Of a stretch of DNA of 64,000 nt, positions 4,602 to 52,712 are shown in pieces; position 1 is the stretch's first letter, and each line of letters starts with the position of its first letter. Under the pieces are notes generated by a model, which was not told where the DNA came from, ran no database searches, and worked only from the letters and a program-made list of their open reading frames with translations. The position numbers were made by a program, and so were the translations under genes. This DNA is from Bacteroidaceae bacterium. Its GTDB lineage: Bacteria; Bacteroidota; Bacteroidia; Bacteroidales; Bacteroidaceae. Where the stretch lies: the NCBI GenBank assembly GCA_017546635.1, contig JAFYSC010000049.1, positions 12,442 to 76,441 of the forward strand, read 5' to 3'.

Positions 4602-5651
4602 ATGAGAATTGTCGTAGACGAAAAAATCCCATATTTATGCGAGGCCCTTGAACAGATGGGCCATACGGTGGAAGCATTGCCCGGGTGCGCCATAAGCAAC
4701 AGCGACCTGCTGACAGCCGACGCGCTCTTCGTGCGCACACGCACACTCTGCAATGCAGCCCTATTGGACAACACCGCCGTACGCTTCATAGGCACGGCAA
4801 CCATCGGGCACGACCATATCGACAAGGAGTATTGCCGGCAGAAAGGCATTGTGTGGACAAATGCCCCCGGCTGCAACGCCGACGCCGTGCTCCAGTATGT
4901 ACAGTCGGTCATATACTGCTGGGCAAGGAGCAACAGCATAGAGAACCTCCAGGGACTCACACTGGGAATTGTGGGCGTGGGACAGATAGGCTCACGCGTA
5001 GAGCGCTGGGCACGCAAGGCCGGTCTCACAGTCCTGCTCAACGACCCTCCACGTGCAGCACGCGGCGAGGAGGGCTTTGTCGCCCTCGAAAAGATAGCCC
5101 AGGAGTGCGACATCATCACCTTCCACACGACACTCAACAAGAGCGGCGACTACCCGAGCTACCATCTTGCCGGCACCGCATTTATGGACAATCTGCACAA
5201 GTGCAAGCTGCTGATAAACGCCTCTCGCGGCCCTGTCGTCGACAACAGTGCCCTGCTGCAGGCAATCGAGAGCAACAGGACAGCATCTGTCGCGCTCGAC
5301 GTATGGGAGAACGAGCCGCTGCTGAACCCCAAGCTCTTGGAAAAAGCATATATCGCAACCCCGCACATTGCCGGTTACTCGGCCGAGGGAAAAATGAATG
5401 CCAGCCGTATGATGGTCGAGGCATTTGCAGCATTCTGCAATTACAAGGAGGCACTCCCCATTATGAGACTGCCCGCTCCACAGCATAGTGAGATAAGTGC
5501 AGACAGCCTACCCGATGCCCTTCTCGCCATATATAACCCAATGGATGACACCCGGTTACTGAAAACATCGCCTCATAAATTCGAGGAGTTGCGCAACAAT
5601 TACAACCTTAGGCGCGAGCCCTCGGCATACGAGATAAGAACAGAGGAATAG
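4602..5651 (+). CDS. pdxB: 4-phosphoerythronate dehydrogenase
   Basis: MRIVVDEKIPYL N-terminus, a D-2-hydroxyacid dehydrogenase NAD-binding motif (GIVGVGQIGSRV), and a PdxB-type C-terminal dimerisation region. Confidence 0.85.
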   Translation: MRIVVDEKIPYLCEALEQMGHTVEALPGCAISNSDLLTADALFVRTRTLCNAALLDNTAVRFIGTATIGHDHIDKEYCRQKGIVWTNAPGCNADAVLQYVQSVIYCWARSNSIENLQGLTLGIVGVGQIGSRVERWARKAGLTVLLNDPPRAARGEEGFVALEKIAQECDIITFHTTLNKSGDYPSYHLAGTAFMDNLHKCKLLINASRGPVVDNSALLQAIESNRTASVALDVWENEPLLNPKLLEKAYIATPHIAGYSAEGKMNASRMMVEAFAAFCNYKEALPIMRLPAPQHSEISADSLPDALLAIYNPMDDTRLLKTSPHKFEELRNNYNLRREPSAYEIRTEE

Positions 5652-5733
5652 AGGCAAGAAGGCATTAATACAGCACATTTTGCACAAACTACGCAAATTG
5701 TGCAAGGAAAATTCGCATTTTTCGCCGAAATTC

Positions 5734-9804: not shown

Positions 9805-11160
9805 ATGATAAAAAAATTTCAGCTATTTATATTGTTCAGTCTGTGTCTGCATTTGTCGGTAGCGCAGTCGCTGAACGGCAGACTCGATGCCTTGCTGGGT
9901 GATGAATTCCTGCACGACAGCGATGCGTCGGTGGCGGTGTACGACCTTACCGCCGATTCGCTTCTGTATGCACACAGGGAGCACAAGCGCTGCCGCCCCG
10001 CATCGGTGGCAAAGGTTGTCACAGTGGCTGCCGCTCTCACCAGGCTCGGCAGCGGCTATACGCTCGACACGCATCTATACAGCAACGAAAACAATCTTTA
10101 TGTAAAAGGGACAATGGACCCTCTTTTCGACGAGGAGGATATGCTCTCTATGGCCCAGTCTGTACCTGCGGGAACGGTTATTGACACCCTTTTTGCCGAT
10201 TGTTCCTTTTGCGACTCATTGTATTGGGGCCCCGGCTGGGCGTGGGACGATAACCCGTACGGATTCCAGCCTTATATCTCGCCGCTGTTGCTTTGCGGCG
10301 GAGCTGTCGGGGTAACTGTAACCCCTACCGAGAAAGGCGCTGCACCGCGTTACAGCTGTACGCCGCAATCTTCCTTCTATACGGTTGTAAACGAGGCGCA
10401 GTGCAGCAATAAGGAGTTGGACAAGCTCACTATCCTACGCGATTGGCTCAACGACAGCAACACTATCCGCATACGCGGAAATTGTACAAGAGAAACTACC
10501 GAAAGACTCAATATGTACAAGTCGGCCGACTTTTTTATGGCTGTACTTGTCGAGAAACTGACAGCACAGGGTGTGGAGGTAAAGAACATTGCTTTTGGAA
10601 CTGTGCCCGACAGTGCCCTGTGCATACACTCTACCGCAAGGCTTATAGAAGATGTTGTTTCCGAAGCTCTTTTGGAGAGCGACAATATCTGTGCCGAGGC
10701 TCTTCTCTATCATCTGGCTGCAACAAAGGGCGGCTCTGCTTTTTCTATGGAGCAGGGGTGCGGGGTTGTAGATTACTTTATGCAGGAGAATATGGGCTGT
10801 AACGGTGGATATTCCCTCTACGACGGTTCGGGGCTCTCTCCCTATAACCATATATCAGCTACTGCGGTGCTCTCTATATTGCGCTACATTTATGACAACT
10901 CCGACATTTACGGTGTTGTTTACCCACGCCTGCCACTGTCGGGTGTGTCGGGTACAATGAAACACCGTACAAAGGGTACTGCTGCATACAAAAAGGTTCG
11001 TGCAAAGACGGGAACAGTTACTGGCGTATGCACCCTTGCCGGCTACGCAACGGCAAAGGACGGGCATACCCTTGCCTTTGTGCTTATGAACAGCGGCGCA
11101 GAAAGTGCGCGTAAGGCGCGTGAGTGGCAAGACAAGGTGTGCGACGCACTTTGCAGATAG
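9805..11160 (+). CDS. dacB: D-alanyl-D-alanine carboxypeptidase/endopeptidase (PBP4, S13 family)
   Basis: Signal peptide, an SxxK motif (PASVAKVVT), a KTG motif (RAKTGTVTGV), and a GVSGTMKHR block. Confidence 0.85.
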   Translation: MIKKFQLFILFSLCLHLSVAQSLNGRLDALLGDEFLHDSDASVAVYDLTADSLLYAHREHKRCRPASVAKVVTVAAALTRLGSGYTLDTHLYSNENNLYVKGTMDPLFDEEDMLSMAQSVPAGTVIDTLFADCSFCDSLYWGPGWAWDDNPYGFQPYISPLLLCGGAVGVTVTPTEKGAAPRYSCTPQSSFYTVVNEAQCSNKELDKLTILRDWLNDSNTIRIRGNCTRETTERLNMYKSADFFMAVLVEKLTAQGVEVKNIAFGTVPDSALCIHSTARLIEDVVSEALLESDNICAEALLYHLAATKGGSAFSMEQGCGVVDYFMQENMGCNGGYSLYDGSGLSPYNHISATAVLSILRYIYDNSDIYGVVYPRLPLSGVSGTMKHRTKGTAAYKKVRAKTGTVTGVCTLAGYATAKDGHTLAFVLMNSGAESARKAREWQDKVCDALCR

Positions 11161-11170
11161 TAAGTAACTT

Positions 11171-11201
11171 TTTGTAGGAATACTTTTTTTATGTATTTTT
11201 G
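11171..11201 (+). promoter_or_regulatory. Bacteroides-type promoter pointing into the island (hairpin RNA and HTH copy 1)
   Basis: TTTG at 11171-11174 and TATTTTTG (TAnnTTTG) at 11194-11201, with exactly 19 nt between them. It lies ~150 nt upstream of the hairpin and ~300 nt upstream of the HTH ATG. Confidence 0.5.
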
Positions 11202-11353
11202 TATTTGATTATGGGACTGTGTTGCCGTATATTGAAAATGGGCAAATGTAATGTTCAATATAAAGAAATAGATGTGATTTTTAATAACTATTCGATGATA
11301 ATGTAAAGATAAACTCGAAATATCAATTATAGCGGACTATAAACTTTTCTCTT

Positions 11354-11468
11354 AACCTGAAAACCGCCAATTTGAAGCCACAGAGAATAAGTTCAGATTG
11401 TTCACACCTTGTGGTGTGGGCTGTTTGTGCTTATTCGTGGCGAAGGTTACTTGGCGGTACCTCAGGTT
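11354..11468 (+). other. 115-nt extended imperfect hairpin (candidate structured RNA or 5' leader element)
   Basis: The hand-folded stems are as follows. 11354-60/11462-68 (7 bp). 11364-70/11451-57 (7 bp). 11377-81/11437-41 (5 bp). 11385-91/11430-36 (7 bp). 11394-11408/11413-27 (14 of 15 positions paired). The loop is UUGU. Four of the pairs are G-U and form only in a plus-strand transcript. Confidence 0.4.
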
Positions 11469-11490
11469 TAGGATAAGTGATAATAACAGC

Positions 11491-11701
11491 CTATACCACT
11501 TTTATTATGATACATATTGGAGAGCTTATAAGGAAGCGAATGCAGGAAATAGAAAGGACACCGAGCTGGCTGGCAAGAAAGATAAACTGCGACAGGACAA
11601 ACATTTACAAGATATTTCAACGTCCAAGCATAGATACCGCGCTTCTGTCCCGAATCTCAAAAGCATTGGACCACGATTTTTTTGCCGACCTTTCGGACGA
11701 G
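11491..11701 (+). repeat. direct repeat copy 1 (211 bp; partner at 19608-19818)
   Basis: By hand alignment it has 12 mismatches over 211 nt (~94% identity). It covers 16 nt of upstream sequence plus the first 65 codons of the HTH gene. Confidence 0.9.
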
Positions 11702-11734
11702 CAAAGCAGCGATTGTGACAAACAGGCTACATAA
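11507..11734 (+). CDS. small helix-turn-helix (XRE-like) DNA-binding protein, copy 1
   Basis: MIHIGELIRKRMQEIERTPSWLARKINCDRTNIYKIFQRPSIDTALLSRISKALDHDFF is a classic HTH_3-like layout. ATG at 11507 aligns with the start of copy 2; the track start at 11477 is GTG. Confidence 0.8.
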   Translation: MIHIGELIRKRMQEIERTPSWLARKINCDRTNIYKIFQRPSIDTALLSRISKALDHDFFADLSDEQSSDCDKQAT

Positions 11735-11758
11735 GTGTGATTGAAACTCACACTTTTT
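11733..11758 (+). terminator. weak intrinsic terminator after HTH copy 1
   Basis: Stem AAGTGTGA (11733-40) / TCACACTT (11748-55) with a 7-nt loop, running into TTTTT (11754-58). Confidence 0.35.
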
Positions 11759-11846
11759 GCAGCCTGTTTGTTCTTTTATAAACTTCCTTTGCAAAAAGAA
11801 TCAATAATTAACAAATTAGACTCGCAAACAAAGAAAACACTTGCGT

Positions 11847-13718
11847 ATGGTATCTAAACGTATTTTTCTATTCATTTTGTTAGCAATTATTTTGCAAACA
11901 AATATTTGCTTTGCTCAAATTACAAAAGAGGAAAGAGGAGACTCTTTCAAATGGGTTATGGTGACAAACAAAAGTAATGGCGAGAGAGGTGTTGAGACTC
12001 CCACTGGAAAAGTTATTGTTCCTATGGGAAAGTACATGATAACTTATCAGGAGTTGAATGGTGGCTTCTTTCAGTTACAAGAAAATGGGATACAGGCTGC
12101 ATATTCAACAGAAGGAAAAATATTAATTCCTTTTACGCGAGGCTATGATCGTATTGTAAGACATGGTAATTATTATGGTGTTCGGAAAAACGGTTTAGAA
12201 GGAGCCTGTGATGATGATGGCTACGAGATTGTCGCGCCTAAATATGCAGGTCTGTTTTACTCAAGCATAGATGGTTTTAACTCAATTGCAGATGGCGAGT
12301 ATGTCCCTTTAGGCATAACTAAAGATGCTAATGGTCTGTTTTCCGGTGTTGACTATTCCTTGAAATCTGTTAGCTTAGCACAAACATCTGTAGGTGCGCC
12401 AACGAAAAATATCTCAACATCAGCTTCGTCCTCCCAAGATCAATCATTTGGAGCCGGTTCTTCAACCATAACGTATAATGCATCAGGCACTACTTACAAA
12501 GATCAATACAGACGCAGTTCTCTATGCCTTATCCTTCTTACGCATCGTGATAAAAAGTATGCCGCTGCGATGGAACGAGTATTCAGGAACTTCCCTCTTC
12601 CAGCACGATATAACGAACATAACATAAGCGACATTCGTGTCATCAGCGTACAAGGAAAACAATCAAAAAGTGATATAGACCGACTTTTAAGTAGCAACAA
12701 TATTGCTCAAAAGATCGTGGCCAGGTGGTTTAACAGGAATGCTTATACAGGTCGCATGAACATGGACTTAATTCATGAACGTGGCGGCTATGGCGCTTTT
12801 TATGCAGACTATCTGCGTTCACAGAGCAATGTGCGTGGAACTGCTATGCTTCGTGATGAAGGTATTGAGTTGCTGCAGAGTACTTTTGTTCTTGTATGTG
12901 ATATGGACTATATCGACAAGAAGAAGGGTGCGTTTTGGGCCGCATTAGGAACGGGTATTTTAACTATCGGTGCAGCAACTATGTCCACTATAAACCAACA
13001 GCAGGCATACAACGCATACTATCAAGGTAATTATAATGAGGCGAGACGAAAGCAAAATGCAGCCAATCAGTGGAATGTAGGCGCAAGCCTTGGCGCAGCA
13101 GCAACAACTGTAGTTGCAGACATCGGTGGTTTTCGGGTAAAGATGAATGCATATCTTTACAAACTACGCTGGGATGACAGTATGACTCAGACGATGTATC
13201 GTGACTATTGGTGTGACAATCAGACATCTTATTCGGAAGCCAAAGAAAAAAAAATCAAATTCGACAACGCATTATTTACCCTTGACTATGTAGGAGAATA
13301 TAAGGCAAAAAGTTCTAAAACAATTCTCAGAAGTTGGAATAATGAAGATCAGGTGATTCTCGACGTATGCCAGCGATGCGTCAACAAGGGGATGAAGGAA
13401 TTGGCAAAGACTTTTCCTATTTTCAAGCCGCGTACTCCTTTTTACTTTGAAGGTAGTACGGTTTACTCACATATAGGAACTAAAGAAGAAGTGTCGTATG
13501 GGAAGAAGTATGAAATTGTACAGCCATATAAAGACAGTAGTGGTCAAATATGCTACAAACGTGTGGGAACAGCAGAAGCAGGCACACCTTGGAATAACAG
13601 AGAAATAAGGTTCGACCAATATTTTGACAATGGAGCGAAAGGAACAATATTCTATTGTAAAAAGAAAAAGGCATCTGTAGACTTGCATATGCCTGGATTA
13701 CAGTTAAGAGAACTATAA
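11847..13718 (+). CDS. island protein 1: secreted multidomain protein (N-terminal WG-type beta repeats, Ser-rich linker, unknown central and C-terminal domains)
   Basis: Signal peptide (MVSKRIFLFILLAIILQTNICFA/Q). Repeated G-x-(I/V)-(I/L)-(I/V)-P...Y motifs (GKVIVPMGKY, GKILIPFTRGY, GYEIVAPKY) resemble WG/KWG beta-propeller-like repeats. The linker is TSASSSQDQSFGAGSST. ATG at 11847. Confidence 0.8.
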   Translation: MVSKRIFLFILLAIILQTNICFAQITKEERGDSFKWVMVTNKSNGERGVETPTGKVIVPMGKYMITYQELNGGFFQLQENGIQAAYSTEGKILIPFTRGYDRIVRHGNYYGVRKNGLEGACDDDGYEIVAPKYAGLFYSSIDGFNSIADGEYVPLGITKDANGLFSGVDYSLKSVSLAQTSVGAPTKNISTSASSSQDQSFGAGSSTITYNASGTTYKDQYRRSSLCLILLTHRDKKYAAAMERVFRNFPLPARYNEHNISDIRVISVQGKQSKSDIDRLLSSNNIAQKIVARWFNRNAYTGRMNMDLIHERGGYGAFYADYLRSQSNVRGTAMLRDEGIELLQSTFVLVCDMDYIDKKKGAFWAALGTGILTIGAATMSTINQQQAYNAYYQGNYNEARRKQNAANQWNVGASLGAAATTVVADIGGFRVKMNAYLYKLRWDDSMTQTMYRDYWCDNQTSYSEAKEKKIKFDNALFTLDYVGEYKAKSSKTILRSWNNEDQVILDVCQRCVNKGMKELAKTFPIFKPRTPFYFEGSTVYSHIGTKEEVSYGKKYEIVQPYKDSSGQICYKRVGTAEAGTPWNNREIRFDQYFDNGAKGTIFYCKKKKASVDLHMPGLQLREL

Positions 13719-13734
13719 CAAAAATAATACGACT

Positions 13735-14205
13735 ATGATTAAAAGACTATTATTCTTAATGATGCTGTGCATGAGCATAGCGGTTGTAAAAGGCCAGGAC
13801 TTCTCCGTAATGAGCGATGGACAAGGACACAATGGCGAGTATATTGTGATTGTTGTTGTCAGCACGAAGAAGAACCCTGCCAAAGAAGCAGAGAACCTGG
13901 TGAAGGAGTATGCTGTTCGTGGCGTGATGTTCCGTGGTGTTGCACCCTACAAGGAGCATCCAGGCCAAAAGCCTCTGATTAGTGATCCCGCTGTAGAGCA
14001 GGTTAAGGGAAAGGAACTCCAGGCATTCTGGCGCGAAAAATTATACCTTAACTATGCCATACTCCAGCCGCAGTCGTTATCTGTGATGAAAAACAAGCAG
14101 ACAAAAATGTATGAAACGACCGCTCGTCTCACCATCAATAAAGAGCTGCTTATCAAATGGCTTGAAGATAACGGAATTATTCAAGGTTTTTCTAATCTGT
14201 GGTAG
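13735..14205 (+). CDS. island protein 2: small secreted protein (paralogue of island protein 4)
   Basis: Signal peptide (MIKRLLFLMMLCMSIAVVKG/Q), 156 aa, tightly packed in the operon, and shares a motif pattern with island protein 4. Confidence 0.75.
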   Translation: MIKRLLFLMMLCMSIAVVKGQDFSVMSDGQGHNGEYIVIVVVSTKKNPAKEAENLVKEYAVRGVMFRGVAPYKEHPGQKPLISDPAVEQVKGKELQAFWREKLYLNYAILQPQSLSVMKNKQTKMYETTARLTINKELLIKWLEDNGIIQGFSNLW

Positions 14206-14207
14206 TT

Positions 14208-14777
14208 ATGAAAAAAACAGCAATACTTTGCCTTGCACTTGTTGCCTCTGCAACTGCATTCTCGCAAGAACGGGTCATAAGAATGTCTGAAGCGCCATCA
14301 AAGACCTATAATATAGCAGAAGAGGACGGCGGGTCATTTTGGTGTGCTATTGAAGCCGGTGGTGGCTCAACAGCAATGGAATACAAAAAGAATGTTGCCA
14401 TGCTTAGTACTACATACACAGGAGGTTACCGCTTCAATCAATACCTGAAAGTGGGTGCCGGCTTGGGGGTAATTTATTATCCCAATAGCAACAATGTCCG
14501 TGACACAAAGTATCATCTGGCAATGCCTCTTTTCTTGAATGTTCGTGGAAATATACTTTCCGAAGAAATCAGATATACGGTTCCTTATTGGTCGGTTAAT
14601 GTAGGAATGGCTATTCCTGATGGATTCTTTCTCACCCCTACAGTTGGACTTCGTATTGGCGAGAAACGAAATGCTTTTTTAGTTGGTATTAGTTACACAT
14701 TCCGTCATTTTAAGGCTTATTCTGACTATACAGAGAACTATAGTGGAGCATTATTAAAACTTGGTTATGAATTCTAA
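14208..14777 (+). CDS. island protein 3: small outer-membrane beta-barrel protein
   Basis: Signal peptide (ALVASATAFS/Q), alternating hydrophobic beta-strand pattern rich in G/Y, and C-terminal LLKLGYEF ending in Phe (OMP beta-signal). ATG at 14208. Confidence 0.75.
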   Translation: MKKTAILCLALVASATAFSQERVIRMSEAPSKTYNIAEEDGGSFWCAIEAGGGSTAMEYKKNVAMLSTTYTGGYRFNQYLKVGAGLGVIYYPNSNNVRDTKYHLAMPLFLNVRGNILSEEIRYTVPYWSVNVGMAIPDGFFLTPTVGLRIGEKRNAFLVGISYTFRHFKAYSDYTENYSGALLKLGYEF

Positions 14778-14789
14778 TTTAGCAAAAAT

Positions 14790-15275
14790 ATGACAAAAAA
14801 ATTATGGATGCTGGCTGTTATGGCAATCATACTGCTCATTAGTTGCCAAAGCAAGGACGTTGTTACGCCTGCTTTTCACAGTTATACGACAGAATGTTTG
14901 GGTAAAAGTATGGATGGAAGCCAGACTTTGAGAGTATGGGCTTCTGGCCGGAATAAAAAAGATGCCATAGAACAGGCCAAGAAGAAGGCTGTCTATGATG
15001 TAGTGTTCACTGGCATTCAGGCAGGAAGTGGCGAATGTAATGCCTACCCCATAGTGGACGAAGCTAATGCACGGAAGAAATATGAGGACTATTTCGACCT
15101 ATTCTTTACTGATGGTGGTGCTTATTCGCAATATGTGTCTATCACTAACCAGAATAAATCGGCAATTCAAAGATACCAAGGGAATGGGACTCAGACTCTT
15201 GGCATCATCGTAACGGTTAATCGTTCAGCCTTGCGCCAGCGATTTGTGAGTGATAACATTATCGTAAAACAATAA
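14790..15275 (+). CDS. island protein 4: small lipoprotein (paralogue of island protein 2)
   Basis: Lipobox LLISC followed by QSKD. The shared core with protein 2 is ...KKDAIEQAKKKAVYDVVFTGI versus ...PAKEAENLVKEYAVRGVMFRGV. The shared tail is IIVTVNRSALRQRFVSDNII versus ARLTINKELLIKWLEDNGII. Confidence 0.75.
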   Translation: MTKKLWMLAVMAIILLISCQSKDVVTPAFHSYTTECLGKSMDGSQTLRVWASGRNKKDAIEQAKKKAVYDVVFTGIQAGSGECNAYPIVDEANARKKYEDYFDLFFTDGGAYSQYVSITNQNKSAIQRYQGNGTQTLGIIVTVNRSALRQRFVSDNIIVKQ

Positions 15276-15290
15276 AGATTTGGTAATAAT

Positions 15291-16238
15291 ATGAAACGGC
15301 TATTTATTTTATGTGCTGCTATGTTTACAATAGTTAGTAGCAGTGTTGCCCAAAAGTCGATGACTCCTCCCCACGTAATGGTGGTGCCAGACTTGATTTA
15401 TTGCAAAGCCCACGGCTTCACGCTACAATTCAACAATAATGGACATACAGAGACGATTCCTGACTATGAAAGAGCGTTATCTGAAGACCCGTCGCTCCAC
15501 GCTGTCCTAACACAGATTGCTCAGCTTATAACGGACCGCAGCAGCGATATTGTAATTGTGGATATTATTGAAGCCATAAACAATGCAAAAGCGGATGCGG
15601 CAATGGCCGCTGCTAATGCAGGGGATGAGTCTGAGAGTGTAGATGAAGCCATTATTCGTAATTCTGAGGCAGATATTATTGTGAGATTACAGTTTGACCT
15701 TGTTAAGAATGGGCCGGAATATCGTGTTTCGTATGTACTTAATGGAACTGATGCATATACCAGCAGAAACTTTGCGCCGGTTTCCGGTATGGGAAAACCC
15801 TCTACATCCGCAAACCCTGTTGTTCTTCTTCGCGAGGCTGCAGCCGAAAATATGGATGCATTCCTTGCAAAGATGCTCTCCTATTATCAGGGTATGCTGA
15901 CCAAAGGTCGTATGGTTGCTTTCGAAATCAAGACCACCTCAACAGCGACCGTAAACATGAATAGCAAAGTAGGACAATACACACTACGGGAACAGATTGA
16001 AGATTTTCTCTACGACAATTCTGTAGACGGTAACGGACTCGAAAGAGTACAAAGTGGCAATACGTTCTTGCGTTATCAGGGTGTATATATTCCGCTTACA
16101 GCAACCATTCGTGATAGACAACGCAAACAAGGAGCTAAAGATATTGCTCAGAAACTTGTAAACTATTTGGAATCCAACGGAGTTGATGCGGAATACAAAA
16201 TTCGCGGTTTAGGTAAGGTTAACATATATATCAAATAA
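15291..16238 (+). CDS. island protein 5: secreted protein of unknown function (possibly DUF6175-like, from memory)
   Basis: Signal peptide ending SSVAQ. The mature N-terminus PPHVMVVPD resembles that of island protein 6. No catalytic motifs recognised. Confidence 0.75.
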   Translation: MKRLFILCAAMFTIVSSSVAQKSMTPPHVMVVPDLIYCKAHGFTLQFNNNGHTETIPDYERALSEDPSLHAVLTQIAQLITDRSSDIVIVDIIEAINNAKADAAMAAANAGDESESVDEAIIRNSEADIIVRLQFDLVKNGPEYRVSYVLNGTDAYTSRNFAPVSGMGKPSTSANPVVLLREAAAENMDAFLAKMLSYYQGMLTKGRMVAFEIKTTSTATVNMNSKVGQYTLREQIEDFLYDNSVDGNGLERVQSGNTFLRYQGVYIPLTATIRDRQRKQGAKDIAQKLVNYLESNGVDAEYKIRGLGKVNIYIK

Positions 16239-16250
16239 GGAGGGACTGCT

Positions 16251-17186
16251 ATGAAGAAATCTATATTTTCCATGGCGATGTTTGTATGTGTCGCGTTGGG
16301 CATAAATGCTCAAAACGATTGTGTCATACCTATGATGGTGCTAGTTCCAGAGCAAGTTGATACACTTGCCCCAATGGCCCAAACAAAGTTAGAATCAAAG
16401 ATGCGGCAGATAGTAACCTTGAATGGAATGGAAGGCGGAACTTCTTTCTCTAACTTCTGTATTGTCGCAAACTTGGTGGAAGGCTCAAAGGAAGTGACGA
16501 GTGGCTTACGTCCGATGGTGACTGTCACTACCGATTTAGAAATGTTTGTCGGCAACAACTATACAGGTGAGAAATTTGCATCCACGGTCATCACTTTGAA
16601 TGGTGCAGGGCGCAATGAGTCAAAAGCATACGGGGCTGCTTTTGGAAGTATAACTACAGGGAATGCACAGATACAAAAGTTTCTGAAAGATGCCAAACTC
16701 AAGGTCAATCAATATTATGAGACTCAGGTGCCAAACATCATCACCCAGGCACGTGGATTCGCCATCCGTCGTGACTTTGAAGAAGCTCTTTGCCTGCTGA
16801 CATCCGTGCCCACATGCTGCAGTAAGTATCCAGAAGTGGAACAGTGTATGCTTGAGATTTATCAGCAGTATGTTGATTACGATTGTGCTGTAAAGGTAAA
16901 TAAGGCTCGTGCTATTTGGAATGCAAGTCAAGATAAAGAGGGTGCAGCTCTCGCTGGTGCTTACCTTGCTTCTATCGATCCTGCTTCCTCGTGCAGGGAC
17001 GATGCGCTATCGCTGGCAGAGTCAATTCGCGCCCGTATCGGTGATGATTGGGAGTTTTCCAAGGAACTGATGCGCGACTCCGTTATGCTGGAAAAGACTA
17101 AGATTGAAGCTATCAGAGCTATTGGAGTGGCATTTGGCCAGAATCAGAAAGCATTAACGGTAAAGGAGAATTGGTTTGTAAGATAA
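16251..17186 (+). CDS. island protein 6: secreted protein of unknown function with a Cys-rich helical C-terminal half
   Basis: Signal peptide ending GINAQ. The mature N-terminus is CVIPMMVLVPE. The C-terminal half is helical and TPR-like with several Cys (TSVPTCCSKYPEVEQC, YDC, SSC). Confidence 0.75.
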   Translation: MKKSIFSMAMFVCVALGINAQNDCVIPMMVLVPEQVDTLAPMAQTKLESKMRQIVTLNGMEGGTSFSNFCIVANLVEGSKEVTSGLRPMVTVTTDLEMFVGNNYTGEKFASTVITLNGAGRNESKAYGAAFGSITTGNAQIQKFLKDAKLKVNQYYETQVPNIITQARGFAIRRDFEEALCLLTSVPTCCSKYPEVEQCMLEIYQQYVDYDCAVKVNKARAIWNASQDKEGAALAGAYLASIDPASSCRDDALSLAESIRARIGDDWEFSKELMRDSVMLEKTKIEAIRAIGVAFGQNQKALTVKENWFVR

Positions 17187-17670
17187 AAATGGGGATCCTC
17201 CTGTGTATGGTGGCAGCTTTTCCACTTTCTACTATTGGTTAGGGTCGTAACGATGTTTTCAATGGTACACGGCAAAAAGTTGGAGGCGGCAATGCGTCTG
17301 CCTTCAACCAAAACTGCGTGAATAACTTCAACGACTACTGCCAGAAACTGAATGCCTGACGTTTTCTTGTCTTGGAACCTCTCTGCAGGTGCGAAAACCA
17401 CAAGGCGGAGACTTTAGCTTGTCAGGAACAAATGAAAATGCCGTAGCATATGCATGGGAAAGACTATGCGACCCTCGCTTCTGCGGTTTGCTTTACAGAT
17501 TACGCTAGTGTTGACTACATTCAAGTAAATTATAATAGATATGTGGTTTGTGCCCCCACATATGTAGGTATCCAATATGGATAACAAGACTGCTAAAATC
17601 ATAGTACTGCAATAAGGATGAGGTTATAACTCACAAAATAGTTTATTCCAACGAAATAGATGATAAAGTT

Positions 17671-18525
17671 ATGATAAAACAAATTGTAAAAACTAAGTTG
17701 GCTTTTGCCTTATCGGTGTTTTGGCTATTGTGCCAGAACATATGTGCCCATCCATCAGAACCAGCAACGAGTAATAGCATAATTCCCAAGCCTGTTTGTA
17801 GTTTCTACGAGATACCTTTTGACACCTTGAGGAATGAAGAGCAAAAAAGAATTAAGGCAACAAAGAGAAGGGAAGAAGCGAAACAGCAGCAAGAGACACA
17901 AGAGACAGAAATGATAACTGCTAAAGAAAAAGAAAAATTTGACCAGATAAACAACTCTCTGACAATCTACCAGAATTCAGCAGTTAAAGAGGGAAAGCAT
18001 GAATCTTCTGTGGGAAACGACAGGGCTGTTGTTTTTGGAATTCGTGCCGGAGTCAATCTTGCTTCATTAGATCTTAATAGTGGAGTCAGTGGCAAATGTA
18101 GCATGGTTACATCCTTTCATGCAGGTTTGAATTTGGATATAAGGCTGATAGATCAAATACATCTTAATACCTCTTTGCTCTTTTCTCAGAAAGGTTACAA
18201 ATATAAAAACAATTGGGATAGTCAGCGTGAGGAAACTGCTAAGGCACAGTTTTTCATGCTCCCAGTTCAACTATCCTTACGACCTGGTCCCCTACAGATT
18301 AATGCCGGACCTTATGTTGAATATGGATTTGGAGGCAAAATCGATTACGGATTGCGTGGATGGGAGCATGACACTTTCGATTATTATGAAGCATTTAATT
18401 ATGGAATAGCAGTAGGAGTGGGGGTTAATCTTGGCAAACACTTCTATCTGGGGGCTAACTATGAAATGGGATTGTCCGACTATGCAAACCGCAATATTGC
18501 CATTAGTCTTGGGGTTAATTTCTAA
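17671..18525 (+). CDS. island protein 7: outer-membrane beta-barrel (porin-family-like) with a charged N-terminal extension
   Basis: Signal peptide. A K/E/Q-rich segment follows (EQKRIKATKRREEAKQQQETQETE). Then come beta-barrel-like strands (FGIRAGVNLASL, FHAGLNLDI, YGIAVGVGVNLG) and a C-terminal ISLGVNF ending in Phe. Confidence 0.75.
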   Translation: MIKQIVKTKLAFALSVFWLLCQNICAHPSEPATSNSIIPKPVCSFYEIPFDTLRNEEQKRIKATKRREEAKQQQETQETEMITAKEKEKFDQINNSLTIYQNSAVKEGKHESSVGNDRAVVFGIRAGVNLASLDLNSGVSGKCSMVTSFHAGLNLDIRLIDQIHLNTSLLFSQKGYKYKNNWDSQREETAKAQFFMLPVQLSLRPGPLQINAGPYVEYGFGGKIDYGLRGWEHDTFDYYEAFNYGIAVGVGVNLGKHFYLGANYEMGLSDYANRNIAISLGVNF

Positions 18526-18542
18526 CAAAAGAAACGCGTGAT

Positions 18543-19580
18543 ATGAAAGCAAAATATTTTATATTTGTAATTGTTGGTTGTTTGGGAACACTGTTTACAT
18601 CATGTAGTGAATCATGGCCTTATTCAGAAGAAGAGTATAAAAAAGTACGGCTTTGGGGCGATCCTTCCTACATTGCTTTAGATGAAGATGAATTTACCGG
18701 GGAATTCTATGTTCATAGCTCAGACAGTTGGGATATATATGATTATCCTTCGTGGATAAACTTGTCAAAGTATTATGGATATGGCTTTGGCTATGTGAAT
18801 TTTACGGTAGATGAAAATTATAGTAGTTCAACGCGGTACGGCTATGTTAAAATAAGGACAAATGAAGGATTTAGAAAAGAGGCAGAAGTACAGATTGCTC
18901 AACCTCCCACTGTTCAATTTGAGGCATCGATGAATATAACAAATTATTCAGCCTCAGGTGATTGGTGGTATTTGGAAGTGAAGGCAGGATCCTCTCAAAG
19001 CTGGACTATATCAAAATCTAACTCATGGGTTCATTTGGGAAGTAGCTATAGCTCATCGTACACATATAGTGGAAAAGGTAATGAGAGTGTAAAAATATAC
19101 GTAGATGCAAACAGTTCTTTTTACTCACGAAGTAGCAAATTAACTGTTAAGTGCGGAACAAAGACCAAGTCTATTACTATCACACAAGACGGAAATCCAG
19201 ATAAAGCTCCATTTGTGATTAATTCTGTAGAGGTGGGCAACATTGCAACAGACGGTAGTATCATAAACGATTTTGGTTCCAAAATATATTCTTATCAAAC
19301 AAAATATCTAAAACCTAAATTATATATCAAAGTTAATACCCCTGGCACATACACATTATATGTTAAACTATATGATGCAAGCGGAAAGTTGAGAACCGGC
19401 GCAAACTCTCCTTCAGGGTATTCATATAGCACAACAGGAACTTTGTATAGCAACACAACCTGGTGGAAACTTAATGGATGGGGTAATGATAGAGCAGGTT
19501 ATTGGGGGGCCGGCCAATATAGATGGGAATTCTGGTATAGTGGTGAGAAGATAGGTGAAAAGTCCTTTACAATATATTGA
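18543..19580 (+). CDS. island protein 8: lipoprotein with two BACON-like beta-sandwich repeats and a C-terminal beta-rich domain
   Basis: Lipobox LFTSC followed by SES...EEE, resembling the Bacteroidota surface-export signal. Two repeats have the pattern W-I/V-x-L...Y...V...N...R...I-T-I-T-Q (SWINLSK...YVKIRT...VQIAQP and SWVHLGS...KLTVKCG...ITITQDG). Confidence 0.7.
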   Translation: MKAKYFIFVIVGCLGTLFTSCSESWPYSEEEYKKVRLWGDPSYIALDEDEFTGEFYVHSSDSWDIYDYPSWINLSKYYGYGFGYVNFTVDENYSSSTRYGYVKIRTNEGFRKEAEVQIAQPPTVQFEASMNITNYSASGDWWYLEVKAGSSQSWTISKSNSWVHLGSSYSSSYTYSGKGNESVKIYVDANSSFYSRSSKLTVKCGTKTKSITITQDGNPDKAPFVINSVEVGNIATDGSIINDFGSKIYSYQTKYLKPKLYIKVNTPGTYTLYVKLYDASGKLRTGANSPSGYSYSTTGTLYSNTTWWKLNGWGNDRAGYWGAGQYRWEFWYSGEKIGEKSFTIY

Positions 19581-19607
19581 TGCATACATAGGGGCTGACT
19601 AATAAGT

Positions 19608-19818
19608 CTATACAACTTTTATTATGATACATATTGGAGAGCTCATAAGGAAGCGAATGCAGGAAATAGAAAGGACACCGAGCTGGCTTGCAAGAAAGAT
19701 AAACTGCGACAGGACAAACATTTACAAGATATTTCAACGTCCACGCATAGATACCGCGCTTCTGTCCCGAATTTCTAAAGCGTTGGACCACGATTTTTTT
19801 GCAGATTTGTCTGACGAG
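19608..19818 (+). repeat. direct repeat copy 2 (partner at 11491-11701)
   Basis: See copy 1. The first 150 nt of the CDS differ at only 3 positions. Confidence 0.9.
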
Positions 19819-19833
19819 TATGAGCAGGCGTGA
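19624..19833 (+). CDS. small helix-turn-helix (XRE-like) DNA-binding protein, copy 2
   Basis: 69 aa. Identical to copy 1 over 65 aa except S45R, then a divergent tail (YEQA versus QSSDCDKQAT). Confidence 0.8.
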   Translation: MIHIGELIRKRMQEIERTPSWLARKINCDRTNIYKIFQRPRIDTALLSRISKALDHDFFADLSDEYEQA

Positions 19834-19940
19834 AAAAACAGCAACAGGAGCGTGAATTAAATCCACGGCGATTGTAGTTCTAAAAAGTGTAAATAAGTTT
19901 TTCTTTGTAAAAACATTTATAAACACAAAAGCACAGAATT

Positions 19941-20492
19941 ATGAAAAGATTGGTTTTTTCACTGCTTTCAGTGATGTTGTTCGCGCTTGCGCAAGCACAG
20001 GTGTCGAATAGCGTTGATGGCGCAAGTGCAGGTAATACTACTGTGGTAAAAGGCGATGCCGCAGCCGACTTCTTTGTTGGCTGGTCTGATGAAGCGGAAG
20101 TTTTTAGTTTCAGAATGGGAGGTGACCTGAAGAATGGTAAGTTAGGCTATTTTACTTATGGAGGGGATGTGGGCACTGGAGATGTATCTTTTTGTAATTA
20201 TTTTTTAGGATATGGTATTAAGAAAAGATACTATATGAATGATTCGTTTTTAATTCAGGCTGCGGTGTGGCCTTATGCAGGTTTCTCTTGGGTAACTGTT
20301 GACCTTGAGGACGAATACGACTTTTTATATGGTATCTCGGCACAGATTGAGGCTGGTATAAAGATTTTTACTTCTAAGAAGGGAAATGATTTTTATCTCA
20401 CAATTGGTTATAATATGGCTGCTCCTGAATTTAAAATGGAGAATGTTGTGGAGAATGGAACTTGGCAGATCGGTGTGACTATGAGATTCTAA
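19941..20492 (+). CDS. island protein 9: small outer-membrane beta-barrel protein
   Basis: Signal peptide (MLFALAQA/Q), G/Y/F-rich alternating strands, and C-terminal WQIGVTMRF ending in Phe. Confidence 0.75.
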   Translation: MKRLVFSLLSVMLFALAQAQVSNSVDGASAGNTTVVKGDAAADFFVGWSDEAEVFSFRMGGDLKNGKLGYFTYGGDVGTGDVSFCNYFLGYGIKKRYYMNDSFLIQAAVWPYAGFSWVTVDLEDEYDFLYGISAQIEAGIKIFTSKKGNDFYLTIGYNMAAPEFKMENVVENGTWQIGVTMRF

Positions 20493-20523
20493 GTTAGGAT
20501 TAACAAAGTGTTGATGCTATATT

Positions 20524-20566
20524 AAAAAAGTATTGCCAATGTCTACGGCATTGGCAATACTTTTTT
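20524..20566. terminator. bidirectional rho-independent terminator between island protein 9 (+) and queG (-)
   Basis: Perfect 12-bp stem (GTATTGCCAATG 20530-41 / CATTGGCAATAC 20549-60) with a 7-nt loop, flanked by A6 (20524-29) and T6 (20561-66). Confidence 0.8.
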
Positions 20567-20656
20567 AATGTTTCTGTGTATAGAGTAAATGGTGGTTTAT
20601 TTGTGAAATTTTAATGGTAATACTGTCTGTTAACTGTAATATTCTTCAGTAGTCGA

Positions 20657-21574
20657 TTATTTAAGGCTATTGATATTCCTCATCAGCTGTCCATATCCGC
20701 AACGCTCTACGGCCGAGTTGCCGAACAGCTCTTTGTAACGCTCCTCGGTAAGCCCTTTCCAATCGCTCTCATCCATTGCAAGCAATGCGGCAGATGGAGT
20801 GAACTCTGTTACCTGTGTCGGTGTGGCAAACCTGTTGTGCGGGCACCATTTTTGGCAACGGTCGCAGCCGTAGAAGCAGTTTCCCATCTTTTCACCTATA
20901 TTTTCGGGCAATTCACCCCTGTGTTCTATTGTAAGATAAGAGAGACATAGGCGTGCATCGAATCCCTCGGCTGTGAGGGCATTTGTGGGGCAGGCATCTA
21001 TGCATTCACTGCACTCGCCGCAGCGGTTACCCTCGAGAGGGGTGTCATATTCGAGCTCTGCATCTATAAGCAGCTCGCCCAGGAAGAAATGTGTGCCTGC
21101 ATTGGGAATTATGAGCTGATGGTTCTTGCCTATCCACCCTATGCCTGCGCGTGTGGCCCAATAGCGCTCCAACAGCGGTGCTGTGTCGCAAAAGGGGCGT
21201 CCGCTGACTTTCACCTTGCCGTTTATTGCCTGCAACAGCATAAAAAGGCGGTCCTTGACGGCCTTGTGGTAGTCTCTTCCCAGCGCGTAGCGCGACAGGT
21301 GCAGCCTCTCCTCTTCGACGTTGCCAGGGAAATAGTTCAGTGCCACACAAATTATGCTGCGGCAACCGGGGAACAGCAGTGTGGGGTCGGTGCGCTTGTC
21401 GCAGTTGCGCTCAAGATAGCCCATTGTACCGTGCCGTCCTTCGCCCACCCACTTCTTGAGGTATCCTACAGTCCTAAGGTCAACAGGAGCAGCCTGGGCA
21501 ATGCCGCAAACTGTAAAGCCGAGGCGTAGTGCCTCGGCTTTTATGAATAGTGTGAGTTCTTTCTTGTCCATCAT
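20657..21574 (-). CDS. queG: tRNA epoxyqueuosine(34) reductase
   Basis: Two 4Fe-4S ferredoxin motifs (CGECSECIDACPTNAL and CDRCQKWCPHN) and a QueG-type N-terminal cobalamin-binding domain. Confidence 0.9.
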   Translation of the reverse strand: MMDKKELTLFIKAEALRLGFTVCGIAQAAPVDLRTVGYLKKWVGEGRHGTMGYLERNCDKRTDPTLLFPGCRSIICVALNYFPGNVEEERLHLSRYALGRDYHKAVKDRLFMLLQAINGKVKVSGRPFCDTAPLLERYWATRAGIGWIGKNHQLIIPNAGTHFFLGELLIDAELEYDTPLEGNRCGECSECIDACPTNALTAEGFDARLCLSYLTIEHRGELPENIGEKMGNCFYGCDRCQKWCPHNRFATPTQVTEFTPSAALLAMDESDWKGLTEERYKELFGNSAVERCGYGQLMRNINSLK

Positions 21575-26448: not shown

Positions 26449-26510
26449 AACTCTATGCTTCAGTAAAAGGGTGTAAAAAAATAAGTCTCCGATTTCTCGG
26501 AGACTTACTG

Positions 26511-26582
26511 AGGTACCTGGCGGATTCGAACCGCCGTACACGGTTTTGCAGACCGCTGACTAAGCCACTCATCCAAGGTACC
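26511..26582 (-). tRNA. tRNA-Cys (anticodon GCA)
   Basis: Hand-folded cloverleaf. The acceptor stem is GGTACCT/AGGTACC. The anticodon stem-loop is GCGGT-CTGCAAA-ACCGT. The T-arm is GGCGG-TTCGAAT-CCGCC. The discriminator is U73, as expected for tRNA-Cys. CCA is not encoded. Confidence 0.9.
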
Positions 26583-50645: not shown

Positions 50646-52169
50646 TTAGTGCTTAAAGTGGCGGAATCCGGTTGTCACCATTGAAACGCCGTTAGCGTCG
50701 CAATAGTCTACCGACTCCTTGTCCCTTATCGAGCCACCCGGATGGATAACTGCGGTAACGCCTGCTTCGTGTGCAATCTGCACGCAGTCGGGGAAGGGGA
50801 AGAACGCGTCGCTTGCCATTACTGCGCCCTGCAGAGAGAAACCGAACGAGCCGGCCTTCTCGATAGCGTGTCTGAGCGAGTCTACACGTGATGTCTGACC
50901 TACGCCGCTTGCAATGAGCTGCTTGCCCTTTGCAAGTACAATGGCGTTGCTCTTGCTGTGCTTTACAATCTTGTTCGCAAAGAGCATATCCTCTACCTCC
51001 TGGGCTGTAGGCTGAGCCTGTGATACAGTGCTCAACTCCTCGACGCTCTCAACCTTTGCATCACGGTCCTGTACAAGCACACCGTTGAGCACGCTGCGGA
51101 ATGTACGGGCGGGCATCTCGTTGCACTTGTGAACAAGTATAATGCGGTTCTTCTTCTGCTTGAGGACCTCGAGTGCATCCTCGTCGTATGAAGGAGCGAT
51201 GATTACCTCAAAGAAAATTTCGTTGATAGCCTCGGCTGTCGCCTTGTCTATAGCAGCATTAGCAATGAGCACACCACCGAATGCCGATACGGGGTCGCCT
51301 GCAAGAGCATCCTTCCAAGCCTCGAGGATTGTAGGACGTGAAGCAAGGCCGCAAGCATTGTTGTGCTTGAGGATAGCGAATGTTGTATCGCCGGCAAAAT
51401 CGGCAATGAGTTCCACTGCTGCGTGGATGTCAAGAAGGTTGTTGTACGAAATCTCCTTACCGTGTATCTGGTCGAAGATTTTGTTGAAGTCGCCGTAGAA
51501 GGCACCCTTCTGATGGGGGTTCTCACCGTAGCGCAGGCTCATAGGAGAATCCTGTGCGCAACGGAATGCGCTCTGCTCCTCACCTGTAAAGTAGTTGAAG
51601 ATAGCCGAATCGTAAGACGATGACACAGCAAACGCCTCACGCGCAAAGAAACGACGCTCCTCGAGTGTTGTCTGCGCACCGTTGCTCTTGAGAATATCGA
51701 GCAGGGGCTGGTACTGGCCCTTGCTGGCAACAATCACCACGTCGTTGAAGTTCTTTGCAGCACCACGTATGAGCGAAATACCGCCTATATCGATTTTCTC
51801 GATGATATCGGCCTCGCAAGCACCCGATGCAACAGTCTGCTCAAAGGGATAAAGGTCCACAATAACCAAGTCAATCTCGGGAATCTCATACTCGGCCATC
51901 TGTTGCTGGTCCTTCTCAAGTTCGCGACGGCCCAAGATACCACCGAACACTTTGGGATGAAGGGTCTTTACACGACCGCCCAAGATAGAAGGATAACCAG
52001 TAAGGCTCTCTACCGCAGTACAAGGAATATCAAGAGACTCGATAAACTGCTGTGTACCTCCGGTTGAAATGAGTTTCACACCCTCGGCGTGAAGCAATTT
52101 GATAATTTCATCCAATCCGTCCTTGTGAAAGACAGACACTAAAGCCGATTTAATTCTTTTTGTTGACAT
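50646..52169 (-). CDS. purH: bifunctional AICAR transformylase / IMP cyclohydrolase
   Basis: ALVSVFHKDGL...STGGT...VKTLHPKVFGGIL...LKHNNACG...VIHPGGSIRD are PurH blocks. Confidence 0.95.
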   Translation of the reverse strand: MSTKRIKSALVSVFHKDGLDEIIKLLHAEGVKLISTGGTQQFIESLDIPCTAVESLTGYPSILGGRVKTLHPKVFGGILGRRELEKDQQQMAEYEIPEIDLVIVDLYPFEQTVASGACEADIIEKIDIGGISLIRGAAKNFNDVVIVASKGQYQPLLDILKSNGAQTTLEERRFFAREAFAVSSSYDSAIFNYFTGEEQSAFRCAQDSPMSLRYGENPHQKGAFYGDFNKIFDQIHGKEISYNNLLDIHAAVELIADFAGDTTFAILKHNNACGLASRPTILEAWKDALAGDPVSAFGGVLIANAAIDKATAEAINEIFFEVIIAPSYDEDALEVLKQKKNRIILVHKCNEMPARTFRSVLNGVLVQDRDAKVESVEELSTVSQAQPTAQEVEDMLFANKIVKHSKSNAIVLAKGKQLIASGVGQTSRVDSLRHAIEKAGSFGFSLQGAVMASDAFFPFPDCVQIAHEAGVTAVIHPGGSIRDKESVDYCDANGVSMVTTGFRHFKH

Positions 52170-52493
52170 AGCTATATTAATTTTAATTTACATATTCAAG
52201 AAGAAACGCATATTGCGCTAATACACAATAAATTATGACAACAGACCAAAAATACGTCATAATTCTTTGCGAAGTTAGCTTTTTTCCTCCGATTTCGCAC
52301 TATAAAACAGATGCTATTTTAAAATAAAAAACATTTCCAACAAGCCCGTCAGCAGCTATAAAAAACGCATATTTAACTCTTATTTATACAAAAAGAGAAT
52401 TTCTATTTTCAGAATTTGTTTTTTTCATTTTTTTACCATAGTTTTATAGCCGTGAGATACAAGATATAGTTGTAACCTATAAAAGAATGCCTT

Positions 52494-52676
52494 ATGACTG
52501 TATGGATAATAATTGCAGGTGTGCTAGTTTTTGCCTTTTTGTATAAGGTTATTAAAGGCATTATCAAAATCCGTCGTAAGGGAAGTGAAGACTACTACAT
52601 CCCGGTAATGAAAACGAGGAAAAAGAGGAAGGACTTCTTCAGACGGTTCAAGTATCTTGAGGGGCTGGGCGACTGA
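52494..52676 (+). CDS. possible small single-pass membrane protein (unsupported beyond the ORF itself)
   Basis: 60 aa with an N-terminal hydrophobic helix (VWIIIAGVLVFAFLY) and a very basic tail. It sits in an otherwise ORF-free AT-rich gap. No homology recognised. Confidence 0.3.
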   Translation: MTVWIIIAGVLVFAFLYKVIKGIIKIRRKGSEDYYIPVMKTRKKRKDFFRRFKYLEGLGD

Positions 52677-52712
52677 CCTGCCCCTCATTTGTATCCGACT
52701 AGAGAACAAAGG

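Follow-up and report, generated by a model that had tools for sequence, protein, structure and literature searches.

Comparative analysis of a 64,000-nucleotide (nt) stretch of DNA from a Bacteroidaceae bacterium (assembly GCA_017546635.1, contig JAFYSC010000049.1, positions 12,442 to 76,441; hereafter the window, to whose positions all coordinates refer) showed that the 9.4-kb AT-rich island between its dacB and queG genes is a horizontally acquired insertion. The island is two-layered: a mobile cassette of exported and outer-membrane proteins, P1 to P8, is nested between two copies of a helix-turn-helix (HTH) gene inside a resident module that consists of an HTH gene and a small-barrel gene. 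In models, two cassette proteins (P1 and P5) have folds that resemble those of known builders of outer-membrane rings, and we propose, at a probability of roughly 45%, that the cassette products assemble into a Sec-dependent, ATPase-free ring complex associated with the outer membrane. The cassette and its core genes are as follows.

11826-19580, + strand: mobile cassette P1-P8, 7.75 kb, collinear with the intact cassette of locus L066
11841-13718, + strand: P1, 625 amino acids (aa), with a signal peptide, a variable N-terminal module, a low-complexity linker, a core from aa 223 and a small C-terminal beta domain
12921-13130, + strand: helical hairpin of P1 (aa 361-430; model helices 147-180 and 184-213), proposed membrane-inserting element
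13735-14205, + strand: P2, 156 aa, exported, paralogue of P4, no Pfam or PDB match
14208-14777, + strand: P3, about 189 aa, optional small outer-membrane barrel candidate with a signal peptide and a C-terminal ...GYEF
14790-15275, + strand: P4, 161 aa, lipoprotein (lipobox LISC), paralogue of P2, no Pfam or PDB match
15291-16238, + strand: P5, 315 aa, DUF6175 (PF19672, E 4e-62), most conserved cassette protein
16251-17186, + strand: P6, 311 aa, exported, alpha/beta towards the N-terminus and made of Cys-rich helical repeats in its C-terminal half, no PDB match

The evidence that these genes belong together comes from a search with a P5 alignment over GTDB species, each represented by one genome, in which tblastn and open reading frame (ORF) clustering were used to establish gene order. 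The scan yielded 26 loci, all of them from metagenome-assembled Bacteroidales (Prevotellaceae/Bacteroidaceae, Paraprevotella and Muribaculaceae). All 26 keep the core order P1-P2-(P3)-P4-P5-P6 at unrelated chromosomal sites, P3 being present in 14 of them and P6 following P5 in every one, and the full form of the cassette reads P1-P2-(P3)-P4-P5-P6-(F14/F7)-F4-(P7-P8), where F4 is sometimes preceded by a WG-repeat protein (F7, in only 5 loci) or by small exported proteins (F14). The orthologues are thus conserved in order rather than scattered, a point that a preliminary description of the island, made from the sequence by eye, had named as a check on its idea of a coherent exported and outer-membrane set; that idea held up. 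The closest intact cassette, that of L066 (P1 to P6, F14, F4, P7, P8), lies in a different chromosomal context from that of the window and is collinear by blastn with window positions 11826-19578, from P1 to P8, the alignment being broken only by three deletions. The ratio of nonsynonymous to synonymous substitution rates (dN/dS) between the window and L066 or L064 is 0.03-0.09 for P2 to P6, except for P3 against L064 (0.24), and 0.15-0.24 for P7 and P8. With ratios of this size, the cassette genes are real and constrained, and together with the gene order shared by 26 species they support the view that the cassette is a functionally linked exported and outer-membrane set. A fortuitous grouping of unrelated genes for exported proteins in AT-rich DNA would account for the lack of a family assignment for most of the proteins and for the unrelated sequences of P3, P7 and P9, but this explanation is effectively refuted by the order kept across 26 species in unrelated contexts, and the purifying selection on the genes, their tight or overlapping arrangement on one strand and the single strong terminator at the end also speak against it; we regard it as extremely improbable.

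All nine large products of the island begin with a K/R-containing stretch and then a hydrophobic core, and thus carry an export signal by our own heuristic, which also found lipoboxes only in P4 (LISC) and P8 (FTSC). Nothing in the cassette codes for an ATPase or for a partner in the cytoplasm or inner membrane. Pfam matches in the island are limited to DUF6175 in P5, a generic outer-membrane barrel in P7, BACON in P8 and, marginally, the HTH; NCBIfam gave nothing above cut-off for the island proteins, F4 or F7, PDB sequence-profile searches with families P1, F4, P6, P5, P2 and P4 returned nothing below E 0.1, and PHROGs gave weak HTH matches only.

We therefore turn to the two modelled proteins. 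P5, which is 60-85% identical across the 26 species, covers the full PF19672 model (210 bits against a cut-off of 23 bits), a family of unknown function for which literature searches with DUF6175 and PF19672 found zero papers. Its AlphaFold2 model (predicted local distance difference test (pLDDT) score 84.6, predicted template modelling (pTM) score 0.77) consists of two alpha/beta halves that a long helix connects, and Foldseek matched it to GNA1162 (E 6.8e-4), XCC0632 (PqiC-like, 8.7e-4) and CsgG (1.6e-3), and also to HpaA, FlgT, PelC and LptE, with E values from 7e-4 to 5e-2 and probabilities of 0.9-0.99 against this class. At fold level, the model would place P5 in the PqiC/PelC/CsgG/LptE/GNA1162-type alpha/beta class. 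The list of matches is essentially the one published for PA3214, an octameric ring lipoprotein (PMC13631591, Table 1), in a study whose authors describe the matched proteins as having a common alpha/beta core and building outer-membrane rings or plugs (PMC13631591). Like members of this class, P5 is periplasm-bound and encoded in an operon of envelope proteins, and the class works at the outer membrane without an ATPase of its own. In contrast to them, P5 is about twice as large, shows no sequence-level similarity to the class and begins with a type-I signal peptide (...SSSVAQ followed by K) without a lipobox by the same heuristic, and the partners PelB, PqiB (an MCE protein), LptD and CsgE/F/A/B were not found with it.

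P1 has no Pfam, NCBIfam or PDB sequence match. Its conserved core, whose start at aa 223 was taken from a 23-sequence alignment, defines a family without a Pfam model that comprises 965 representatives at 50% identity (E<=1e-3), 265 of them at E<=1e-30. The AlphaFold2 model of residues 215-625 (pLDDT 70.3, pTM 0.68) contains a long-stranded beta sheet with helices, an inserted low-confidence helical hairpin and the small C-terminal beta domain. Foldseek searches of the PDB with this core returned a Vibrio LPHT-ring chain (E 2.9e-5), FlgT (E 1e-4) and three TraT decamer entries (E 0.03-0.15), so that the modelled alpha/beta fold is nearest to FlgT and TraT. FlgT builds a ring in the periplasm next to the outer membrane. 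The FlgT/H-ring of the Vibrio LPHT ring (PDB 8z5n, 3w1e) provides the best matches to the P1 core and matches P5 too, but FlgT has no hydrophobic hairpin, unlike P1, and no flagellar families occur among the island proteins or among the 133 flanking proteins of the 26 related loci. TraT combines an LptE-like core with two central transmembrane helices and forms a decameric alpha-helical outer-membrane barrel (PMC12658005, PMC11733297). P1 resembles it in its predicted alpha/beta core, which bears a hydrophobic helical hairpin at its centre, and in residing on mobile DNA, and differs from it in not being a lipoprotein, in being 2-3 times larger with extra N- and C-terminal domains, in lacking a Pfam match to TraT, in carrying a polar extension of about 30 aa at the hairpin tip where TraT has a 4-residue loop, and in belonging to a set of 6-8 genes.

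The P1 hairpin consists of two Ala/Gly/Ser-rich hydrophobic segments around a polar tip (A+G+S 47%), the median 17-residue hydropathy of the segments being 1.56 and 1.04 and that of the tip loop -1.6, and a similar insert rich in small residues (median 65 aa) occurs across the wider P1-core family. No other part of the protein evolves as fast as the hairpin and the linker, whose aa identity to L066 is 36-39%, against 82% in the adjacent core. The N-terminus of P1 also varies: many relatives carry LysM, a module that binds the cell wall, there, and PEGA, DUF2846, Sel1, MORN, META and UVR-type coiled coils are found in the wider family, while the window's version is WG-like by eye (BLASTP E 0.03 against a WG-repeat neighbour protein), WG_beta_rep going undetected there by Pfam. 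Synonymous divergence between P1 and its counterpart at L066:6522-8399 is saturated, and that of the adjoining P2 to P6 is 0.65-1.15; P1 is thus a mosaic element, and seems to have been exchanged independently of the remaining cassette. At four loci (L008:6561-8429, L020:6538-8403, L021:6516-8420 and L035:7236-9038) P1 is lengthened at its C-terminus by about 190 aa, which have Phe as their last residue and the look of a fused outer-membrane barrel.

In the ring complex that we propose, P1 would oligomerise and push its Ala/Gly-rich hairpin into the outer membrane in the manner of TraT, with the fast-evolving polar tip reaching beyond, while the variable module at its N-terminus, which is WG-like in the window and LysM in many relatives, may grip the cell wall or a glycan. 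P5, and perhaps P6, would form a periplasmic ring beneath P1, the lipoprotein P4 and its paralogue P2 would serve as small adaptors, P3 would be a small barrel partner, and F4 would normally cleave or cross-link some component. Since no energy source is encoded, the logic would be curli/Pel- or TraT-like, and the assembly could act as an energy-independent gate or platform that passes a Sec-exported protein across the outer membrane or displays it there. Such passive passage or display, which follows the logic of curli and Pel, is a role to which we would give only modest odds, yet we favour it over exclusion. A more specific version, in which a wall-tethered, non-lipoprotein P1 hairpin ring spans the outer membrane, sits on DUF6175 rings and is matured by the transglutaminase-like protein, so that the cassette would encode an envelope machine not described before and widely distributed among the Bacteroidales of gut and rumen, is tentative and on balance doubtful. 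Alpha-helical outer-membrane proteins are rare, with Wza and TraT as the known examples; if the specific version were true, the cassette would encode an ATP-independent outer-membrane gate or exclusion device of a new kind, among very few alpha-helical assemblies of this membrane, and a large Bacteroidota family of this type would broaden the rules of outer-membrane protein architecture. The models and the synteny also give initial clues, from structure and from gene context, to DUF6175 and to the unmodelled P1-core family with its 965 clusters. Gut and rumen communities are dominated by Bacteroidales, in which phage susceptibility, conjugation, vesicle content or host recognition could shift with an envelope cassette that is mobile and differs between strains.

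Several points weigh against the ring complex. Ring formation is carried over from the behaviour of fold relatives. The fold matches have low TM-scores when normalised to the query (0.18-0.29 overall and against FlgT, 0.18-0.28 for P1, about 0.2-0.28 for P1 against TraT, and TMq 0.24-0.29 for P5), the best value normalised to the target, TMt 0.55-0.60, coming from PelC (135 aa) against P5. The hairpin has a pLDDT below 50, which gives its geometry weak support, and it could instead be an inner-membrane anchor. Neither P1 nor P5 is a lipoprotein, unlike CsgG, PelC, PqiC, LptE and TraT. Modelling covered P1 and P5, both as single chains. No substrate gene was identified for the cassette, the loss of F4 and of an F14-like gene in this genome (see below) means that the cassette may be impaired here, and the evidence as a whole is computational and drawn from relatives that are all metagenome-assembled genomes (MAGs).

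The same ring complex could have a TraT-like role, the exclusion of conjugative DNA or of phage adsorption, and would then be a mobile accessory trait. The TraT-like core and hairpin of P1 (PMC11733297) fit such a role, as do the patchy distribution of the cassette over many chromosomal sites, its AT-richness relative to the host in about half of the loci, its gain by recombination in the window, the rapid evolution of the P1 linker and hairpin tip, the mosaicism of P1 relative to P2-P6, and the Abi_2 gene and IS66 elements that adjoin the L066 cassette. However, PADLOC found 0 matches among 10 proteins, an IMG/VR viral scan with P5 and a BFVD fold search with P1 gave no match, P1 matches TraT less strongly than FlgT, and the flanks are mostly housekeeping genes rather than defence islands; among the 133 flanking proteins of the related loci no Pfam family recurs in more than two, so that conserved neighbour genes around the cassette were sought and rejected. 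Moreover, TraT acts as a single lipoprotein, whereas here a set of 6-8 genes that includes an enzyme is conserved. On this balance we consider exclusion unlikely.

The third functional possibility is a dedicated curli-like apparatus that would secrete and build up an extracellular fibre or a surface layer, with P2/P4 or the WG-repeat proteins F7/F20 of relatives as substrate and F4 as a maturation protease or cross-linker. In common with csgBAC/csgDEFG, all components are Sec-exported and no energy source is present; P5 has the predicted CsgG/PelC core fold, P2 and P4 are small exported accessories, a transglutaminase-like enzyme is found in 21 of 26 species, some cassettes contain extra secreted WG-repeat proteins, and in the window an HTH gene stands at the head, as in curli. 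Yet that HTH gene belongs to the site and not to the cassette, curli lacks a transglutaminase-like enzyme, no curlin-type repeat or amyloid-like subunit was detected, P5 has neither the lipobox nor the membrane hairpins of CsgG, F7 occurs in 5 loci only, and F4, which at least 5 species do without, has decayed here among genes that are otherwise intact. Searches for CsgG, CsgE, CsgF and the curlin repeat gave no match at E<=0.1 in any island protein. A fibre apparatus is therefore, in our estimation, distinctly improbable.

No Plug, TonB_dep_Rec or SusD match was found in the island; the BACON domain of P8 is its sole feature in common with polysaccharide utilization loci (PUL/Sus). No island protein has the C-terminal sorting domain of the type IX secretion system (T9SS), and P7 scores 21.7 bits against PorP_SprF (cut-off 22.3), a generic OMP_b-brl_2 barrel fitting it far better. 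Where the defining features could be checked, the cassette appears to belong to none of the CsgG, TraT, FlgT, PelC/PqiC/LptE, Sus, T9SS, integrase-island and PADLOC systems: in our analysis its composition matches no known system, and it would work most like the outer-membrane ring-lipoprotein machines. The preliminary description had likewise matched the island to no named system, which stands at the level of systems, but its rejection of curli needs qualifying, given that the predicted P5 fold falls with CsgG, PelC, PqiC and LptE and that P1 is nearest to FlgT and TraT.

Among the small exported proteins, P2 and P4 align with each other by BLASTP (E 4e-4) and, as families, by hhalign (probability 99.1%, E 4.9e-19), a comparison that confirms them as true paralogues. 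This bears out one of three paralogue groupings proposed earlier. The second, P5 with P6, is rejected, as the alignment is limited to the signal peptide and first strand (hhalign probability 53%), and the third, P3 with P7 and P9, is rejected at the level of sequence: the three all end in Phe and show no detectable mutual similarity. Kinship of P4 or P2 with P5 or P1 is likewise unsupported by hhalign. In the P2 family, the C-terminus carries an invariant L-W (21 of 21 members; window positions 14188-14205) with a conserved G-F before it, which could be a docking peptide or a sorting signal. Nine of 20 members of the P6 family weakly match an ARM/TPR-type repeat. In a mixed set of 18 sequences (13 of the P3 family, 3 of the P9 cluster and 2 of the 170-aa outer-membrane proteins of L058 and L063), 5 match OMP_b-brl, which ones being unreported.

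The distal part of the cassette holds a decayed gene and an accessory pair.

17189-17612, + strand: F4 pseudogene remnant, transglutaminase-like, about 500 aa in its intact form (tblastn best E 2e-15)
17671-18525, + strand: P7, 284 aa, accessory outer-membrane beta-barrel with an N-terminal extension (OMP_b-brl_2 E 7.6e-16)
18543-19580, + strand: P8, 345 aa, accessory BACON-domain lipoprotein that travels with P7 (BACON E 1.7e-16; lipobox FTSC, then SES)

F4 is the one enzyme-like gene of the cassette. It is intact in 21 of the 26 species, the other 5 being without it. Two intact homologues match Transglut_core (PF01841) with E values of 0.005 and 0.002 (17.6 and 18.9 bits), below the 23-bit cut-off, and the homologues share an invariant CDCEDR...GH...D pattern (C419/C421, H448 and D475). 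In the window, F4 has decayed: tblastn found residues 1-60, about 132-181 and 449-501 in three frames within the 485-nt gap between P6 and P7, the segment with the Cys, His and Asp residues being deleted, and blastn against L066 showed that the F14-like gene (235 aa) upstream of F4 is lost and that F4 itself lacks 237 nt and 820 nt. The earlier impression that the island encodes no enzyme, which arose because F4 has decayed, therefore holds for the intact genes, but not for the remnant. Homologues of the P7-P8 pair follow F4 in L012 and L066 only.

These losses raise the question of whether the cassette in this genome is a decaying, non-functional passenger whose remaining ORFs are intact because the loss is recent. 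The three deletions relative to L066, by which the F14-like gene and the catalytic portion of F4 were lost, and the spread of the F4 remnant over three reading frames would fit this explanation. Against it, P1 to P8 are full-length with intact signal peptides, the five species with F4-less cassettes suggest that a cassette of this kind may be functional, several metagenome assemblies share this decayed allele independently of one another, and dN/dS is low, though it covers the whole divergence and not the time since the deletion. We judge decay of the cassette as a whole to be improbable, to about the same degree as the fibre apparatus.

The arrival of the island was reconstructed from its composition and from its junctions.

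11273-20656, + strand: island insertion, 9,384 bp, abutting the queG stop codon, as defined by the empty-site alleles of L037, L038 and 8 further relatives
11161-11272, no strand: native dacB-queG intergenic DNA outside the insertion, aligning with the 112-nt spacer of L038
20524-20566, + strand: intrinsic-terminator-like hairpin closing the island, strong, with a 20-bp stem and then a T-run

All ten 1-kb windows from 11001 to 21000 have a GC content of 0.378-0.435 (about 0.40 overall, against about 0.51 in the flanks), and the three 1-kb windows before the island and the three after it have 0.494-0.531 and 0.502-0.545, respectively. GC at third codon positions is 0.30-0.52 for the island genes and 0.57-0.70 for rnc, nadB, dacB, queG, pda (polysaccharide deacetylase) and the TMEM260-like gene. 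Across the related loci, the GC content of the cassette is below that of the flanks in about half. The ORF list contains nine large and two small HTH ORFs, all on the + strand with tight spacing or overlap, and the flanking genes are a Peptidase_S13 (dacB-like) gene on one side and queG on the other. Much of the preliminary description is corroborated: the AT-rich composition that sets the island apart from its flanks, the nine closely packed plus-strand genes, the signal peptide or lipobox on each of them, the BACON-like nature of P8, the two near-identical HTH genes and the dacB and queG flanks.

A metagenome scan based on dacB yielded 21 loci, and the comparison of the dacB-queG junction in relatives, a step that had also been foreseen, revealed alleles with and without the island. 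In L037, whose nadB, deacetylase and TMEM260 proteins are 99% identical to those of the window, the stop codons of dacB and queG are 27 nt apart, and dacB adjoins queG in 8 more distant relatives. Because of the empty-site alleles of L037 and L038, the inserted DNA is 11273-20656; the insertion supposed earlier to begin at 11161 is thus real, but its first 112 nt are native. In nucleotide sequence, the window is about 97% identical to L037 at a distance of a few kb, but only 81-83% identical beside both junctions. As divergence climbs toward both junctions, the expected pattern of homologous recombination of divergent flanks, the island probably arrived here, or was lost in L037, by this route, and the identities suggest that the recombination tract that brought or removed it extended into dacB and queG. 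The acquisition by horizontal transfer postulated in the preliminary description is thus supported by empty sites, by the shift in composition and by the gradient of divergence. At the protein level, dacB (9805-11160) and queG (20657-21574) are about 90% identical to those of L037, and genes a few kb off are 97-99% identical.

We rejected insertion mediated by a tRNA, an integrase or an attachment (att) site, as in a genomic island, an integrative and conjugative element or a prophage, since none of its marks is present: the island was found to hold neither a tRNA gene nor a gene for an integrase or transposase, and its junctions no target duplication. A 26-nt direct repeat at 11179 and 20556 was considered as an att site and discarded, its left copy lying in native intergenic DNA. 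The only tRNA gene of the window (tRNA-Cys, 26510-26582, - strand) is 6 kb off and unrelated to the island. Rfam gave no matches over the island at E<=0.1, and a sigma-70 promoter scan is not meaningful for Bacteroidales.

The second layer of the island is formed by the HTH genes and P9.

11507-11734, + strand: HTH1, putative small XRE/Cro-C1-type regulator of the resident locus, 75 aa, with a match to HTH_26
19624-19833, + strand: HTH2, the second HTH copy, 69 aa (repeat copy 19605-19818; listed feature 19605-19833)
19941-20492, + strand: P9, 183 aa, small exported protein with a C-terminal Phe, matching in position the 170-aa outer-membrane protein of relatives

HTH1 matches HTH_26 with E 4e-4 and 21 bits (cut-off 22 bits), and one member of the cluster at 90% identity is named XRE family transcriptional regulator by NCBI. 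A 214-nt direct repeat, 94% identical, is shared by both HTH genes (11488-11701 and 19605-19818). Through the 90%-identity cluster of the HTH protein we reached three further loci, L058, L060 and L063, which contain dacB, the HTH gene, a gene for a 170-aa outer-membrane barrel protein (weak OMP_b-brl) and queG, and nothing more; the homology of L058 to the window covers HTH1 and extends to 11818, just short of the start of P1. Conversely, none of the cassettes of the 26 other species examined contains the HTH gene. Because it is missing from these cassettes and present in the three cassette-less relatives, the HTH gene is, as judged by this comparative evidence, a feature of the dacB-queG site and not of the cassette. 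HTH2-P9 is the counterpart of the relatives' HTH and small-barrel module, with no BLAST similarity between P9 and their 170-aa protein. Two earlier suggestions fail on these grounds, namely that the island is self-regulated and that it forms a single unit. The site thus offers three natural alleles, empty (L037), with the HTH gene and outer-membrane protein (L058) and with the full cassette, which would ease comparative experiments.

Some observations concern the surroundings of the cassette in other genomes. At L066, an Abi_2 abortive-infection gene lies upstream (5282-5731) and IS66 TnpB and transposase genes lie downstream (16651-18268). In six loci, four of them Muribaculaceae-like (L029-L031 and L033) and the others L016 and L027, a Cbp1-family coiled-coil adhesin lipoprotein (NF052320, E 3e-52; for example L029:61-960) is encoded directly 5' of P1. 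Two loci, L020 and L033, carry the titles 'Clostridium sp.' and 'Staphylococcus sp.' despite typical Bacteroidales neighbours and are probably mislabelled or chimeric MAGs. Elsewhere in the window, a gap of about 540 nt without an ORF of at least 90 aa (52170-52712) separates a purH-like gene (50646-52169, - strand) from the gene for a 509-aa multi-pass membrane protein (52713-54242, - strand), and coincides with a second AT-rich patch (GC 0.386 at 52001-53000).

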